From Escherichia coli O127:H6 str. E2348/69 (GTDB lineage: Bacteria; Pseudomonadota; Gammaproteobacteria; Enterobacterales; Enterobacteriaceae): a stretch of 64,000 nucleotides of DNA. A model generated the notes under the pieces. It worked only from the letters and a program-made list of their open reading frames with translations, was not told the origin of the DNA and made no database searches. Of the stretch, positions 1 through 40,465 are shown piece by piece (positions within the stretch are counted from its first letter, which is position 1; each line of letters begins with the position of its first letter). Made by a program: the position numbers and the translations under genes. The stretch lies in assembly GCF_000026545.1 (NCBI RefSeq), contig NC_011601.1; one strand, given 5' to 3'.

Positions 1-162
1 TAGATAAGCCGTCTCTTCCAGCGAGTTGTATTCTTCGAGTGACATCAGAACACAAGCCTCTCCATTCTGACGAGTAATGAGGATCGGGGCATGATCTTCA
101 ACGGCTTTCATCATTGTTGCCGACAAATTCTGACGCGCTTCGCTGTAGCTAATTGTACGCAT
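1..162 (-). CDS. yefM: YefM antitoxin, N-terminal 54 codons (gene continues beyond window start)
   Basis: Reverse-strand ATG at 160-162; translation [54 protein letters not shown] recognised as YefM; sits beside the his operon as in E. coli. Confidence 0.85.
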
Positions 163-177
163 GTAAATCTCCTCTTT

Positions 178-195
178 TGTACAGTTCATTGTACA
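178..195. promoter_or_regulatory. Putative yefM-yoeB operator: two TGTACA core palindromes just upstream of yefM
   Basis: TGTACA at 178-183 and 190-195, about 16-30 bp upstream of the yefM start; YefM-YoeB is known to autoregulate via TGTACA-core palindromes. Confidence 0.5.
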
Positions 196-376
196 ATGAT
201 GGGTGTTAATTAACTATTTATTAATTAGTTTGTAGATCAAGACATTGTCAGCGAGACGAAAAATCAGGCTTTGCTCTTTTTGGTGCTGTCAAGTAAGAGG
301 ACAGTCCTCTTAGCCCCCTCCTTTCCCCGCTCATTCATTAAACAAATCCATCGCCATAAAATATATAAAAAACCCC

Positions 377-16678: not shown

Positions 16679-18052
16679 TTATTTTTCTTTTAATAAATTA
16701 ATAATAATTGCCGTATTATTTTCCATCACGAGCTGATCACCTCTTGATTCAACGTTCAAACGCACAACAGGTTCGGTGTTGGAGGAGCGCAGGTTAAAGC
16801 GCCAGTTGGCAAAGGCCATACTGATGCCATCGGTGCGATCCACCGCCAGCGCCTCACGGCTAAAATGCTGTTCCACGCGGTTAATCGCCTCAACGGGGTG
16901 CGTGAGTTTGCTGTTGATCTCACCACTTGCCGGAAAAGCCGCCATCCGGTCGCGCACCAGTTCGCCCAGCGTTTTCCCTTTCAGGCACACCAGTTCGGCG
17001 ACCAGCAGCCACGGGATCATGCCGCTGTCGCAGTAAGCGAAATCACGGAAGTAATGGTGGGCGCTCATTTCGCCACCGTAGATAGCGTCTTCCTTACGCA
17101 TACGTTCTTTAATAAAGGCGTGTCCGGTTTTCGACATTATTGGCGTACCGCCTGCGGCAGTCACCACATCAACGGTGTTCCAGGAGAGACGTGGATCGTG
17201 GATGATCTTCGCGCCGGGATTTTTTTCGAGGAACGCCTCTGCCAGCAAACCGACAATGTAGTAACCCTCAATAAACTGCCCTTTTTCGTCAAACAGGAAA
17301 CAGCGGTCAAAATCGCCATCAAAAGCAATGCCCATATCCGCGCCGTGTTTAATGACCGCATTGCGGGTGTCGTCGCGACATTCCGGCAGTAGCGGGTTAG
17401 GAATACCGTTGGGGAAATTGCCGTCCGGCGTGTTATGCACTTTGATTAACTCCACCGGTGCGCCGAGGGCTTTAAAGCGGGCTTCAATGGCGTCCACCAC
17501 CGGACCCGCCGCGCCGTTCCCGGAGTTAATCACCAGCTTGAGCGGCGTGAGGTTTTTGACGTTGATATAACCGAACAGGTGATCAACGTAAGCTTCACGC
17601 AGATTGATTTGCTGATAGCGACCGCGTTTGGTTTCATCGACGGGAGGGAAGTCGTTGGCTTCTGCCAGACGCTGGACATCGCGCAGTCCGGTATCACCGC
17701 TGATCGGGCGAGCCCCCTCGCGCACCAGCTTCATGCCGTTGTAATCCATCGGGTTATGGCTGGCAGTAACTTCGATGCCGCCATCCACGCCGAGATGGAA
17801 CGTAGCGAAATAGATCTCTTCGGTGCCGGACATGCCGATATCCAGCACATCGACGCCCGCATCCTGTAAACCTTTCGCCAGCGCCAGTTTTAAGGTTTCG
17901 CTGGTGAGGCGGACATCACCACCTAAAACAATAGTTTTCGGTTTGAGAAATTCGCCATAGGCACGCCCAATACGCCAGGCAATATCTTCATTCAGTTCTT
18001 CGCCTAATTTTCCGCGAATATCGTAGGCTTTAAAGCAGGTTAATTTTTTCAT
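16679..18052 (-). CDS. manB: Phosphomannomutase, O-antigen copy
   Basis: 457 aa [16 protein letters not shown]..., TASHNP active-site motif; near-identical to the colanic copy cpsG except for the last ~20 residues. Confidence 0.93.
16750..18052. repeat. manB direct repeat, copy A (O-antigen locus)
   Basis: Aligns with 33740-35042 at offset 16990, roughly 96 percent identity by eye; homology ends exactly at the ATG. Confidence 0.8.
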
Positions 18053-19513: not shown

Positions 19514-20000
19514 CCTTTTTATCTAAACCAATAACAGCACTTGGATCATGATTAAAATAAGCTCGGCTGTTAGCGTGAACATTGTTACTGGCGAGCAGCG
19601 CGTCCGGCGTCAGCCAGCGGTAATCGTCATGCTGCTCATCCGGCAGTAACAGCTCTTCTTCCGCTACCCTGAAGCGAAAACCGAGCACCACATAGTGAGT
19701 GGTGAAATCCGTGCCGGAGAAGTTGTCGTCATAAAAGTGCTGCCAGACACCGTAAAACTGGCCTGCTGTTATCTGCAGACGCAGCCCCAGTTCCGCCATC
19801 GTCAGCCGCTCAAATGCGGCTTCCAGCGTTTCGTCTTTCTGCACGCGCCCTCCCGGCACAAACCAGTAACCCTGCGCCGGGCGGTTGGTTCTTTTGCCAA
19901 GCAGAAACTCGCCGCGACTGTTCTCGACAATAAAGTCGAGAGAGACAAGCGGAGTGGAGCGCACTACCGTGGCAAAGTCTTCCTGACGTAAAAACATCAT
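19497..20000 (-). CDS. gmm: GDP-mannose mannosyl hydrolase (Nudix), O-antigen copy
   Basis: 167 aa [13 protein letters not shown]...; Nudix box [23 protein letters not shown]; matches the colanic copy closely except for the C-terminal ~18 residues. Confidence 0.9.
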
Positions 20001-20965
20001 TACCCCCGAAAGCGGTCTTGATTCTCAAGGAACCACTGGTAAGTGCTGGCAAGCCCCGCTTCCAGTGAGATTTCGTGATACCAGCCAAGCTGATGCAGGC
20101 GCGTCACATCCAGCAGTTTGCGCGGCGTACCATCCGGTTTACTGGCATCAAAAACCACCCGACCTTTGTAACCCACCACTTTGGCGATGGTTTGCGCCAG
20201 TTCACGGATGGTGCAGTCAACGCCCGTGCCGACGTTAATGTGCGACAACATCGGCTGGGTGTTTTCCAGCCAGACTTCGTGCGCCAACTCCATCACATGA
20301 ATGCTTGCCGCCGCCATATCATCGACGTGCAGAAATTCGCGCATCGGTGTACCGCTGCCCCACACCACCACGTCCGGTGCATTCTGTGCCGTCGCCTCGT
20401 GGAAGCGACGCAGCAATGCAGGTATCACATGGGAGTTACTCGGGTGGAAGTTGTCATGCGGCCCGTACAGGTTGGTCGGCATGACTGAGCGGTAATCGCG
20501 TCCGTACTGGCGATTGTAAGATTCGCACAGTTTGATCCCGGCGATTTTGGCAATAGCATAAGGCTCGTTAGTCGGCTCCAGCGTGCCCTTCAACAGCTCG
20601 CTTTCTGCCATCGGCTGTTTTGCCAGTTTCGGGTAGATACAGGACGATCCAAGAAACAGCAGTTTGTTCACGTCGTTCTGATGCGCGGCGTGAATGATGT
20701 TGCTCTCAATCATCATGTTCTGGTAGATGAAATCCGCCGGATAGGTGTTGTTGGCAACAATGCCGCCCACTTTCGCCGCCGCCAGATAGACCTGGTCAAT
20801 GCGTTCGCTGGCAAAGAAATCATGCACCGCGCGGCTGTCCAGCAGGTTCAGCTCGTCGCGGGTGCGTAATACCAGTTCCACATCACCGCGCTGTTCGAGC
20901 TGCCGCCTGATGGCAGAACCGACCATTCCGCGATGGCCAGCGATAAAAATGCGTTGTCTACTCAT
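20000..20965 (-). CDS. fcl: GDP-L-fucose synthase, O-antigen copy
   Basis: 321 aa; protein identical to the colanic copy at 38376-39341. Confidence 0.95.
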
Positions 20966-20967
20966 GC

Positions 20968-22089
20968 TTATGACTCCAGCGCGATCGCCACGTCGTAGCC
21001 GTGAGATTTCAGCAGAGAGTGTTTTTTCGCCGCTTCGAGGTCATTAGCCACCATTTCAGACACCATCTCTCTGAGGGTGATTTCCGGTTTCCAGCCCAGT
21101 TTTTCGTGCGCTTTGGTCGGGTCGCCGAGCAGCGTTTCAACTTCAGCCGGACGGAAGTAGCGCGGATCAACCTTAACGATTACATCTCCAGGTTTAACTG
21201 CTGGAGCATCCTCACCATTAACAGAAACCACTATCCCCTTCTCATCTACACCTGTGCCTTCAAAACGCAGTTTGATTCCGACTCGCTCCGCCGCCATTTC
21301 CACGAACTGACGCACGGAGTACTGAACGCCGGTCGCGATGACGAAATCTTCCGGCTGTTCCTGTTGCAGCATCATCCACTGCATTTTTACGTAGTCTTTG
21401 GCATGGCCCCAGTCACGCAGGGAATCCATATTGCCGAGGTACAGGCACGATTCCAGCCCCTGGGCGATGTTTGCGATTGCGCGGGTGATTTTGCGGGTAA
21501 CGAAGGTTTCGCCGCGGCGCGGGGATTCATGGTTGAAGAGAATACCGTTACAGGCGTACATGCCGTAGGATTCGCGGTAGTTAACGGTGATCCAGTAGGC
21601 ATACAGTTTGGCGACCGCATACGGAGAGCGTGGGTAGAACGGCGTGGTTTCTTTCTGCGGAATTTCCTGCACCAGACCGTACAGTTCAGAAGTGGAAGCC
21701 TGATAAAAACGGGTTTTCTTTTCCAGACCGAGGAAGCGGATCGCCTCCAGCAGGCGCAGCGTACCCATCGCATCGACGTCAGCGGTATATTCCGGTGACT
21801 CAAAAGAAACCGCAACGTGACTCATTGCGCCCAGGTTGTACACTTCATCCGGCTGCACTTCACACAAAATGCGCGTCAGGTTGGAGGTATCTGTCAGATC
21901 GCCATAATGCAGATGGAATTTCGGGTTGCAGGTGTGCGGATCCTGATAAATGTGATCCACGCGCTCGGTGTTGAATGACGATGCACGACGCTTAATACCA
22001 TGCACCTCGTAACCTTTTTCCAGCAGAAACTCTGCCAGGTAAGAACCGTCTTGTCCGGTTATGCCAGTAATGAGAGCGACTTTAGCCAT
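20968..22089 (-). CDS. gmd: GDP-mannose 4,6-dehydratase, O-antigen copy
   Basis: ATG at 22089 gives [18 protein letters not shown]...; ORF track begins at an upstream TTG (22119). Confidence 0.93.
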
Positions 22090-33671: not shown

Positions 33672-35042
33672 TTACTCATTCAGCAACGTCAGCAGAGTTC
33701 GCGTTCGCGCTTCCATCAGCGGCACATCACCGCGCGATTCCACATTCAACCGCACCACCGGTTCGGTGTTGGAGGTGCGCAGGTTAAAGCGCCAGTCGGC
33801 AAAGGTCATGCTGATGCCATCGGTACGATCCACCGCCAGCGCCTCACGGCTAAAATGCTGTTCGACGCGATTAATCGCCTCAACGGGTTGCGCCAGTTTG
33901 CTGTTGATCTCACCGCTTGCCGGAAACGCCGCCATCCGGTCGCGCACCAGTTCGCCCAGCGTTTTTCCTTTCAGGCACAACAGTTCGGCTACCAGCAGCC
34001 ACGGGATCATGCCGCTGTCGCAGTAAGCGAAATCACGGAAGTAATGGTGAGCGCTCATTTCGCCACCGTAGATGGCGTCTTCCTTGCGCATCCGTTCTTT
34101 AATAAAGGCGTGTCCGGTTTTCGACATTACCGGGGTGCCGCCTGCGGCAGTCACCACATCAATAGTGTTCCAGGAGAGACGCGGATCATGGATGATCTTC
34201 GCGCCGGGATTTTTTTCGAGGAACGCTTCTGCCAGCAGGCCGACAATGTAGTAGCCCTCGATAAACTGCCCTTTTTCGTCAAACAGAAAACAGCGGTCAA
34301 AATCGCCATCAAAGGCAATGCCCATATCCGCGCCGTGTTTGATGACCGCATTGCGGGTGTCGTCGCGACATTCCGGCAGCAGCGGGTTAGGAATACCGTT
34401 GGGGAAATTGCCGTCCGGTGTGTTGTGTACTTTGATTAATTCCACGGGCGCGCCGAGGGCTTTAAAGCGGGCTTCGATGGCGTCCACCACCGGACCCGCT
34501 GCGCCATTCCCGGAGTTAATCACCAGCTTGAGCGGCGTGAGGTTTTTGACGTTGATATAACCGAACAGGTGATCAACGTAAGCGTCACGCAGATTAATTT
34601 TCTGATAGTGACCGCGTTTGGATTCATCAACGGGAGGGAAGTCGTTGGCTTCTGCCAGGCGCTGGACGTCGCGCAGTCCGGTATCACCGCTGATCGGGCG
34701 AGCCCCTTCGCGCACCAGCTTCATGCCATTGTAATCCATCGGATTATGGCTGGCGGTAACTTCGATGCCGCCATCCACGCCGAGATGGAACGTGGCGAAA
34801 TAGATCTCTTCGGTGCCGGACATGCCAATATCCAGCACATCGACGCCCGCATCCTGTAAACCTTTCGCCAGCGCCAGTTTTAAGGTTTCGCTGGTGAGAC
34901 GAACATCACCGCCTAACACAATGGTTTTCGGTTTGAGAAATTCGCCATAGGCGCGACCAATGCGCCAGGCAATATCTTCATTCAGTTCTTCGCCTAATTT
35001 CCCGCGAATATCATAGGCTTTAAAGCAGGTTAATTTTTTCAT
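33672..35042 (-). CDS. cpsG: Phosphomannomutase, colanic acid copy
   Basis: ATG at 35042 gives [16 protein letters not shown]...; ORF track extends upstream to 35090. Confidence 0.95.
33740..35042. repeat. manB direct repeat, copy B (cpsG, colanic acid locus)
   Basis: See copy A. Confidence 0.8.
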
Positions 35043-37897: not shown

Positions 37898-38376
37898 AAT
37901 CCGGGTACTCCGGCACGCTTCTCAGCGAGAAAATAGGCGCGGCTGTTAGCGTGAACATCGTTACTGGCGAGCAGCGCGTCCGGCGTCAGCCAGCGGTAAT
38001 CGTCATGCTGCTCATCCGGCATTAACAGCTCTTCTTCCGCTACCCTGAAGCGAAAACCGAGCACCACATAGTGAGTGGTGAAATCCGTGCCGGAGAAGTT
38101 GTCGTCATAAAAGTGCTGCCAGACACCGTAAAACTGGCCTGCTGTTATCTGCAGACGCAGCCCCAGTTCCGCCATCGTCAGCCGCTCAAATGCGGCTTCC
38201 AGCGTTTCGTCTTTCTGCACGCGCCCTCCCGGCACAAACCAGTAACCCTGCGCCGGGCGGTTGGTTCTTTTGCCAAGCAGAAACTCGCCGCGACTGTTCT
38301 CGACAATAAAGTCGAGAGAGACAAGCGGAGTGGAGCGCACTACCGTGGCAAAGTCTTCCTGACGTAAAAACATCAT
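37894..38376 (-). CDS. gmm: GDP-mannose mannosyl hydrolase (Nudix), colanic copy
   Basis: 160 aa (wcaH); Nudix box present; tandem ATGs at 38376/38373. Confidence 0.93.
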
Positions 38377-39341
38377 TACCCCCGAAAGCGGTCTTGATTC
38401 TCAAGGAACCACTGGTAAGTGCTGGCAAGCCCCGCTTCCAGTGAGATTTCGTGATACCAGCCAAGCTGATGCAGGCGCGTCACATCCAGCAGTTTGCGCG
38501 GCGTACCATCCGGTTTACTGGCATCAAAAACCACCCGACCTTTGTAACCCACCACTTTGGCGATGGTTTGCGCCAGTTCACGGATGGTGCAGTCAACGCC
38601 CGTGCCGACGTTAATGTGCGACAACATCGGCTGGGTGTTTTCCAGCCAGACTTCGTGCGCCAACTCCATCACATGAATGCTTGCCGCCGCCATATCATCG
38701 ACGTGCAGAAATTCGCGCATCGGTGTACCGCTGCCCCACACCACCACGTCCGGTGCATTCTGTGCCGTCGCCTCGTGGAAGCGACGCAGCAATGCAGGTA
38801 TCACATGGGAGTTACTCGGGTGGAAGTTGTCATGCGGCCCGTACAGGTTGGTCGGCATGACTGAGCGGTAATCGCGTCCGTACTGGCGATTGTAAGATTC
38901 GCACAGTTTGATCCCGGCGATTTTGGCAATAGCATAAGGCTCGTTAGTCGGCTCCAGCGTGCCCTTCAACAGCTCGCTTTCTGCCATCGGCTGTTTTGCC
39001 AGTTTCGGGTAGATACAGGACGATCCAAGAAACAGCAGTTTGTTCACGTCGTTCTGATGCGCGGCGTGAATGATGTTGCTCTCAATCATCATGTTCTGGT
39101 AGATGAAATCCGCCGGATAGGTGTTGTTGGCAACAATGCCGCCCACTTTCGCCGCCGCCAGATAGACCTGGTCAATGCGTTCGCTGGCAAAGAAATCATG
39201 CACCGCGCGGCTGTCCAGCAGGTTCAGCTCGTCGCGGGTGCGTAATACCAGTTCCACATCACCGCGCTGTTCGAGCTGCCGCCTGATGGCAGAACCGACC
39301 ATTCCGCGATGGCCAGCGATAAAAATGCGTTGTCTACTCAT
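38376..39341 (-). CDS. fcl: GDP-L-fucose synthase, colanic copy
   Basis: 321 aa (wcaG); identical protein to the O-antigen copy. Confidence 0.95.
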
Positions 39342-39343
39342 GC

Positions 39344-40465
39344 TTATGACTCCAGCGCGATCGCCACGTCGTAGCCGTGAGATTTCAGCAGAGAGTGTTT
39401 TTTCGCCGCTTCGAGGTCATTAGCCACCATTTCAGACACCATCTCTCTGAGGGTGATTTCCGGTTTCCAGCCCAGTTTTTCGTGCGCTTTGGTCGGGTCG
39501 CCGAGCAGCGTTTCAACTTCAGCCGGACGGAAGTAACGCGGATCAACGGCGATAATCACATCACCCGGTTTAACGCCCGGCGCGTCATGCCCGGTGACGG
39601 AAACCACAATGCCCTTCTCTTCAACGCCCGTGCCTTCAAAGCGCAGTTTGATGCCCAGCTGTGCTGCCGCCATTTCCACGAACTGACGCACGGAGTACTG
39701 AACGCCGGTCGCGATAACGAAATCTTCCGGCTGTTCCTGTTGCAGCATCATCCACTGCATTTTTACGTAGTCTTTGGCATGGCCCCAGTCACGCAGGGAA
39801 TCCATATTGCCGAGGTACAGGCACGACTCCAGCCCCTGGGCGATATTGGCGATTGCGCGGGTGATTTTGCGGGTAACGAAGGTTTCGCCGCGGCGCGGGG
39901 ATTCATGGTTGAAGAGAATACCGTTACAGGCGTACATGCCGTAGGATTCGCGGTAGTTAACGGTGATCCAGTAGGCGTACAGTTTGGCGACAGCATACGG
40001 AGAGCGTGGGTAGAACGGCGTGGTTTCTTTCTGCGGAATTTCCTGCACCAGACCATACAGTTCAGAGGTGGAAGCCTGATAGAAACGGGTTTTCTTTTCC
40101 AGACCGAGGAAGCGGATCGCCTCGAGCAGGCGCAGCGTACCCATCGCATCGACGTCTGCGGTATATTCCGGTGACTCAAAAGAAACCGCAACGTGGCTCA
40201 TTGCGCCCAGGTTGTACACTTCATCCGGCTGCACTTCACGCAAAATGCGTGTCAGGTTGGAGGTATCACTCAGGTCGCCATAATGCAGATGGAATTTCGG
40301 GTTGCAGGTGTGCGGATCCTGATAAATGTGATCCACGCGCTCGGTGTTGAATGACGATGCACGACGCTTAATACCATGCACCTCGTAACCTTTTTCCAGC
40401 AGAAACTCTGCCAGGTAAGAACCGTCTTGTCCGGTTACACCGGTGATGAGAGCGACTTTTGACAT
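39344..40465 (-). CDS. gmd: GDP-mannose 4,6-dehydratase, colanic copy
   Basis: 373 aa [18 protein letters not shown]... Confidence 0.95.

Follow-up and report, generated by a model that had tools for sequence, protein, structure and literature searches.

The yefM-yoeB operon of Escherichia coli K-12 is the best described counterpart of the locus analysed here, and its operator has been characterized by primer extension, lacZ fusions, electrophoretic mobility shift assays (EMSA), DNase I footprinting and mutagenesis of the short (S) operator repeat (Kedzierska, Lian and Hayes 2007, PMC1802561). In K-12, YefM occupies positions -17 to -3 first and then -2 to +12, with an overall protected region from -21 to +12, and the YefM-YoeB complex yields the same footprint as YefM at an approximately 100-fold lower concentration (PMC1802561). 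The EMSA substrate was a 99-bp fragment that extended up to 74 bp upstream of the ATG and included the AT-rich element discussed below (PMC1802561). Mutation of the S repeat or alteration of the 12-bp spacing disrupts cooperative repression (PMC1802561; PMC3920265). The -10 and -35 hexamers of yefM-yoeB were assigned, and -35 swap experiments conducted, in PMC7730913. Furthermore, chromosomal type II modules have been described as horizontally moving promoter-plus-gene units in intergenic regions, including the hisL-yeeZ locus (PMC5120126).

We analysed a 64-kb stretch of DNA (64,000 nucleotides; hereafter the window) from E. coli E2348/69 (EPEC O127:H6), at the left edge of which an antitoxin gene borders the his operon. 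The locus is almost certainly the chromosomal yefM-yoeB type II toxin-antitoxin operon of E. coli, transcribed leftward and away from the his operon, with a promoter-operator region as in K-12. Publications from 2007 to 2020 on an identical sequence already describe the gene pair, its position next to hisL, the long (L) and short (S) operator repeats, the promoter boxes and the mechanism of repression; the value of the present analysis for these features is little beyond correct annotation. What it adds is a probable assignment of an AT-rich 'palindrome' to the yefM promoter, as a feature moving with the cassette and not shared by the yefM and his promoters, the limits of the transferable unit, and an updated count of the cassette among complete E. 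coli genomes.

Gene content and genomic context

An earlier note, made from the sequence alone, had placed a yefM-yoeB module next to the his operon, with the 5' half of yefM inside the window and yoeB just beyond its left edge. Reading leftward on the minus strand from position 162 to 1, the window contains an ATG-started frame without stops that translates into YefM residues 1-54, so that the N-terminal part of the protein is indeed present but amounts to about 65% of the gene (54 of 83 codons) and not half. This fragment matches the Pfam family PF02604 (PhdYeFM_antitox) over its whole length (E=1.6e-21), as does the full-length protein of 83 aa with a stronger score (E=6.1e-28), and the best match of YefM in the PDB is E. 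coli YefM itself (2A6Q chain A, E=1.8e-49). YefM of E2348/69 therefore possesses the N-terminal Phd/YefM DNA-binding and dimerization domain. The part encoded in the window includes R10 (codon 135-133) and R31 (codon 72-70), both of which are needed for operator binding according to a review (PMC4803016, citing Bailey and Hayes 2009).

Three assemblies of E. coli E2348/69 (O127:H6) match positions 1-700 of the window with 100% identity, and positions 1-50000 align with NZ_LT827011.1 with 0 mismatches over 50 kb. In NZ_LT827011.1, the remaining 29 codons of yefM lie to the left of the window edge and are followed by yoeB, which starts 87 nt beyond window position 1, overlaps yefM by 4 nt (GTGA), and encodes a protein of 84 aa that matches PF06769 (E=2.8e-43); yeeZ is located 82 bp past yoeB. 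To the right of yefM, the plus strand carries hisL (445-495) and then hisG (from 641). The proposed module adjoining the his operon was thus borne out by the PF02604 and PF06769 matches and the his genes, and yoeB was found where it had been expected, downstream of yefM in the 100%-identical genome. YefM and YoeB of E2348/69 are both 100% identical to the K-12 proteins, and YoeB retains all four of E46, R65, H83 and Y84, which are reportedly its catalytic residues.

A permissive Rfam search of positions 1-700 returned the His leader only (Table 1), and the yefM-hisL spacer was without a match. E. coli 2013C-3342 carries a hisL allele (L087 745-795) with ATGATACGC in place of ATGACACGC, which changes Thr2 of the leader peptide to Ile, leaves the His run unaffected and is listed under another protein accession.

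Table 1. Features of the yefM promoter-operator region and its flanks in E. coli E2348/69, in window coordinates.
Feature	Position	Strand	Basis
yefM codons 1-54 of 83 (antitoxin and repressor)	1-162	minus	Translation, PF02604, RefSeq annotation of identical genome
Shine-Dalgarno AGGAG of yefM, 6 nt before ATG	169-173	minus	Sequence; RBS 6 bp from ATG in PMC1802561
Equivalent of K-12 DNase I footprint (YefM, YefM-YoeB; -21 to +12)	171-203		Limits from PMC1802561, mapped to the window
S (short) operator repeat, core TGTACA, over transcription start (+1 = 182, minus)	178-183		Sequence and K-12 literature
L (long) operator repeat TCATTGTACAATGA, core 190-195, primary YefM site, contains -10 box	186-199		Perfect 7+7 palindrome; same sequence named L repeat in PMC1802561
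-10 hexamer TACAAT (-11 to -6) of yefM-yoeB promoter	188-193	minus	PMC7730913 and mapping
-35 hexamer TAGTTA, 17-bp spacer to -10	211-216	minus	PMC7730913 and mapping
AT-rich imperfect inverted repeat (-24 to -46 of yefM promoter)	206-228 (arms 207-213, 221-227)		Repeat search, chance test, mapping
ATTAATT block (-38 to -44), candidate UP-like promoter element	220-226		Alignment of eight cassettes; putative function
His leader	471-594	plus	Rfam RF00514, 129.6 bits

The L/S operator

Two exact TGTACA cores with a 6-bp gap, their centres 12 bp apart, are located directly upstream of yefM, as the earlier note had reported. The downstream core (S) ends 15 nt from the yefM ATG, and the upstream core (L) is extended to a longer, perfect 14-bp palindrome, TCATTGTACAATGA. 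The suggested match to the known YefM-YoeB operator holds as well: the two cores are the published S and L repeats, window positions 166-201 are identical to K-12, and the interval equivalent to the K-12 footprint differs from K-12 at position 202 (-20, at the footprint edge) only. The transcription start was fixed at window position 182 from the K-12 data, which place the yefM ATG at +21 and an alternative ATG at -7 to -5. On this scale L covers -17 to -4 and S covers -1 to +5, so that the repeats overlap the -10 box and the transcription start.

Within the 64-kb window the TGTACA pair is unique, even at one mismatch, and shuffled sequences contained a mean of 0.10 pairs with up to one mismatch, with an analytic expectation of 0.004 exact pairs per 64 kb. 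Taken singly, TGTACA hexamers are about as frequent as chance predicts (10 observed versus 11.4 expected); the signal therefore resides in the pairing and position of the cores. A near-core, TGTACG, is located at 154-159 within yefM codons 2-3 (CGT ACA), exactly 24 bp, or two 12-bp steps, from the S core; it lies beyond the K-12 footprint end at +12 and is unprotected there.

Homologous loci were compared in a YefM scan with one genome per species, which comprised 80 loci from Escherichia to Actinobacteria. The arrangement TGTACA-N6-TGTACA with at most one mismatch occurs within 120 bp upstream in 24 of these loci, and at least two GTAC cores spaced 11-13 bp apart occur within 100 bp upstream in 61 of the 80; distances of 11, 12 or 13 bp account for 101 of the 134 distances between neighbouring cores. 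This recurrent pairing in 61 of 80 loci indicates that the family has conserved the paired-core operator, a proposal already made in 2007 (PMC1802561). Many of the actinobacterial yefM homologues (L050-L085) have four GTAC cores, mostly GGTACC or CGTACC, with a spacing of 13-11-13 bp and located approximately 25-70 nt upstream, an array that corresponds to two operator pairs in tandem where proteobacteria have a single pair. Pectobacterium cassettes also have four GTAC cores, spaced by 12, 13-14 and 10 bp.

The TGTACA pair could in principle be promoter sequence combined with a chance second copy, with no repressor site in E2348/69, given that the L core overlaps the -10 hexamer (TACAAT happening to coincide with GTACAA) and that the window shows no excess of lone TGTACA hexamers. 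We regard this explanation as extremely unlikely: the expectation for an exact pair is far below one per window, K-12 has the same sequence at its footprinted operator, mutations of the S repeat abolish proper repression in K-12, and the 11-13 bp pairing of GTAC cores recurs across phyla with unrelated promoters. The published footprints and the comparative data together rule out a mere promoter with a chance copy.

Promoter and autorepression

Except for the role of the AT-rich element, the mechanism of autorepression has been shown experimentally in K-12, and it can be carried over to E2348/69 through sequence identity. A sigma-70 promoter (-35 TAGTTA at 216-211, -10 TACAAT at 193-188, start at 182) would drive yefM-yoeB. 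A YefM dimer would bind the L palindrome over the -10 box first, and a second would bind at the S repeat, whose TGTACA core lies 12 bp away over the start site. YoeB, which has no DNA binding of its own, would function as corepressor, with YefM2-YoeB providing the approximately 100-fold higher affinity and cooperative binding to the two sites. The bound complex, with one YefM dimer per repeat, would sterically exclude RNA polymerase. Degradation of YefM by Lon would result in derepression and in the release of free YoeB, a ribosome-dependent RNase that cuts mRNA (PMC3920265, PMC4803016). An EMSA of the operator with YefM-YoeB, which the earlier note had proposed, has in effect already been published with the 99-bp K-12 substrate.

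A simple scan of positions 1-700 for sigma-70 consensus promoters and terminators found nothing. The sigma-70 threshold was 9 of 12 matching positions, the known yefM promoter has 8 of 12, and the his hexamers are below the threshold, too; neither the proven yefM promoter nor the his promoter was picked up, which makes the scan uninformative here. A LexA box in the yefM promoter was considered and dropped; LexA has 0 occurrences in PMC1802561.

The AT-rich element

In addition to the operator, the earlier note described an AT-rich palindrome at about 208-230, between the divergent yefM and his promoters. The window does contain TTAATTAACTATTTATTAATTAG to the letter, but the string begins 2 nt further left and is only partly palindromic: arms of 7 nt (TAATTAA and TTAATTA) flank a 7-nt spacer that lacks symmetry. 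A shorter string within this region, GTTAATTAAC at 205-214, is self-complementary. The placement between two promoters did not hold: the element is located inside the yefM promoter and contains its -35 box (Table 1).

Dinucleotide shuffling of the 282-bp intergenic region produced an inverted repeat of equal size in 22% of cases, and shuffling of the local 41-nt AT-rich segment did so in 3.9%. The inverted repeat alone is barely above chance. Its dyad symmetry is not maintained among related sequences; of the element, only the distal ATTAATT and the -35 box persist. E. coli LT883142 contains GTTGATTCAC in place of GTTAATTAAC without a compensating change, and UBA5654 likewise has an altered, uncompensated proximal arm, as do three of the four IncF-plasmid cassettes (those of Salmonella and E. 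marmotae), the Citrobacter plasmid being the only plasmid copy that keeps TAATTAA. The ATTAATT block is invariant in all eight aligned cassettes, including the IncF-plasmid copies, which have an overall identity of 81-86% and an S core that is degenerate or has been deleted. All eight, and the Pectobacterium cassettes as well, retain a -35 box of the form T(A/G)GTTA. Pectobacterium and more distant cassettes lack the ATTAATT tract, which is thus no universal part of the system. Within E. coli, the AT-rich segment and the operator segment have similar identity bands, and the idea of a stronger conservation of the AT-rich segment was rejected on this basis.

The element starts at 206, outside the interval equivalent to the K-12 footprint, which ends at -21 (203), and it is thus not protected by the repressor of the operon itself. 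The end of the footprint at 203, the broken symmetry and the retention of the -35 box and ATTAATT point to promoter sequence rather than a second operator. Based on these comparisons, the AT-rich element is most likely the upstream part of the yefM promoter, consisting of the -35 box and an A/T tract. Positions -38 to -46 (CTAATTAAT) form an A/T-rich tract upstream of the -35 box, which is possibly an UP-like promoter element. Its position and composition fit an UP element, an A/T-rich tract at about -38 to -59 whose contacts with the alpha subunit of RNA polymerase raise promoter activity; its match to the UP consensus is loose. A comparison by eye of the AT-rich element with the consensus motifs of IHF, Fis and H-NS yielded loose resemblance only.

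Two other explanations of the AT-rich repeat bear on this assignment. It might represent a separate operator, bound by a second dimeric regulator or by additional YefM-YoeB and perhaps coupling the yefM and his promoters, as the complementary 7-nt arms, the scarcity of such repeats among local shuffles and the invariance of the distal arm ATTAATT in eight of eight cassettes would suggest. We consider a separate operator very unlikely, as protection by YefM or YefM-YoeB stops at -21 even with micromolar protein and on fragments that include the element, the dyad is unconserved in LT883142, UBA5654 and three of four plasmid copies, and the overlap with the -35 box already explains the constraint on part of it. 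Furthermore, a distance of approximately 150 bp separates the element from the his promoter region, and the element is missing, together with the cassette, from the approximately 22% of E. coli genomes that keep the his promoter.

Alternatively, the repeat could have arisen by chance in AT-rich intergenic DNA and have no role beyond holding the -35 hexamer. The frequency of equal repeats among shuffled intergenic regions is in line with such an origin, as is the self-complementarity of TTAATTAA-type strings, which makes apparent symmetry cheap, and among E. coli genomes, conservation of the segment does not exceed that of the operator segment. The invariance of ATTAATT at -38 to -44 in chromosomal and plasmid cassettes with a varying S core suggests some constraint upstream of the -35 box, however, and we regard pure chance as a less probable, if serious, explanation than promoter sequence upstream of and including the -35 box.

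It is also conceivable that ATTAATT at -38 to -44, with or without TGTACG at 154-159, constitutes an additional, so far undescribed control site. It could either be contacted by a nucleoid protein or the alpha subunit of RNA polymerase and set basal expression, or act as a weak third YefM site resembling the GTAC arrays of Pectobacterium and actinobacteria. We consider such a site unlikely; if there were a contact with alpha or a nucleoid protein, the basal expression of the cassette would be set wherever the cassette lands.

Cassette distribution and junctions

Of 5,426 complete E. coli genomes, 4,217 carry the operator segment and 5,423 the his-proximal segment. The cassette represents a presence/absence polymorphism that corresponds to window positions 1-312 and, in its full extent, to L001 3649-4312. 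In cassette-free genomes such as O157:H7, yeeZ is followed by hisL, with an unrelated REP-like stretch of approximately 215 bp (an alignment estimate) between the same junctions. These junctions are located just past a hairpin downstream of yoeB and, on the right, at approximately window 303-312. A polymorphic cassette between fixed junctions agrees with the view of mobile toxin-antitoxin modules in PMC5120126.

Homology between the chromosomal and plasmid cassettes extends from the yoeB stop codon to approximately window 226-240. These alignments delimit the transferable unit: one end is the yoeB stop codon, and the other lies about 60 bp upstream of the transcription start. As cassette-free E. 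coli lack the AT-rich element, and the homology with plasmid cassettes reaches approximately 226-240, we read the element as cassette-borne.

The hairpin on the yoeB side, ATTCATTC-TAT-GAATGAAT, is located at L001 3638-3656 (approximately 345-363 nt left of window position 1), 3-4 nt past the yoeB stop codon; it marks the left cassette junction and is present in cassette-positive and cassette-free alleles. At the right junction between cassette-specific and shared sequence, a perfect 9-nt palindrome, TAAGAGGAC-A-GTCCTCTTA, spans 294-312. Its left arm is cassette-specific and its right arm is nearly present in cassette-free strains. Uncompensated changes in L3Cip3 and E. whittamii argue against a strict constraint on this palindrome as a functional junction site.

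To judge from this distribution, the his promoter must be located in the segment at approximately 307-444 that is common to all E. coli. By eye, the hexamers TTGCTT (377-382) and TAGGTT (401-406), approximately 150 bp from the AT-rich element, are what we take to be the his promoter.

Repeats elsewhere in the window

The O127 O-antigen and colanic acid clusters share a 2.5-kb direct repeat (19554-22083 and 37930-40459) with 97.6% identity, which covers gmd-fcl and the beginning of the GDP-mannose mannosyl hydrolase gene; both fcl products are listed under one protein accession. A second direct repeat of 1.3 kb (16721-18052 and 33711-35042; 93.9% identity) comprises cpsG/manB. Both repeats are possible substrates for recombination or gene conversion.

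Comparison with known systems

The yefM-yoeB operon of K-12 (b2017/b4539) shares with that of E2348/69 identical proteins, operator, spacer, -10 and -35 hexamers and transcription start site. The neighbours yeeZ and hisL are also the same, as is the yefM-hisL spacing of 282 bp; a longer intergenic region than in K-12 had been considered and was rejected, as it measures 282 bp in both strains. The two loci differ by scattered intergenic substitutions outside the operator only (165, 202, 204, 242-243 and others) and by the strain background.

The yefM-yoeB cassettes on IncF plasmids of Citrobacter, Salmonella and Escherichia marmotae (L090-L093) exhibit 81-86% DNA identity to the chromosomal cassette from the yoeB stop codon to approximately -45 to -60 and share the L repeat, the -35 box T(A/G)GTTA and the ATTAATT tract. 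In contrast to the chromosomal locus, their S core is degenerate (TGTACT, TGTTCA) or deleted, and they have unrelated flanks (traT, a type III secretion chaperone gene) and no link to the his operon.

The homologous axe-txe pair of Enterococcus faecium plasmid pRUM also contains L and S repeats with a TGTACA core and has an identical -10 hexamer, TACAAT (PMC7730913). Contrastingly, its L repeat is located in the spacer between the -10 and -35 hexamers and its S repeat partly over the -10 hexamer (PMC7730913, PMC3920265). The axe-txe cassette further differs in its stronger -35 hexamer (TTGCTT), in having two further promoters, one upstream and one internal, and in that its repression is specific to the complex.

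More distantly, phd-doc of phage P1 shares the N-terminal fold of the Phd/YefM antitoxins (PF02604), autorepression at palindromic sites and the use of the toxin as corepressor (PMC4803016). Its operator sequence is different, and Doc is a kinase with a Fic fold, whereas YoeB is a ribosome-dependent RNase with a RelE fold.
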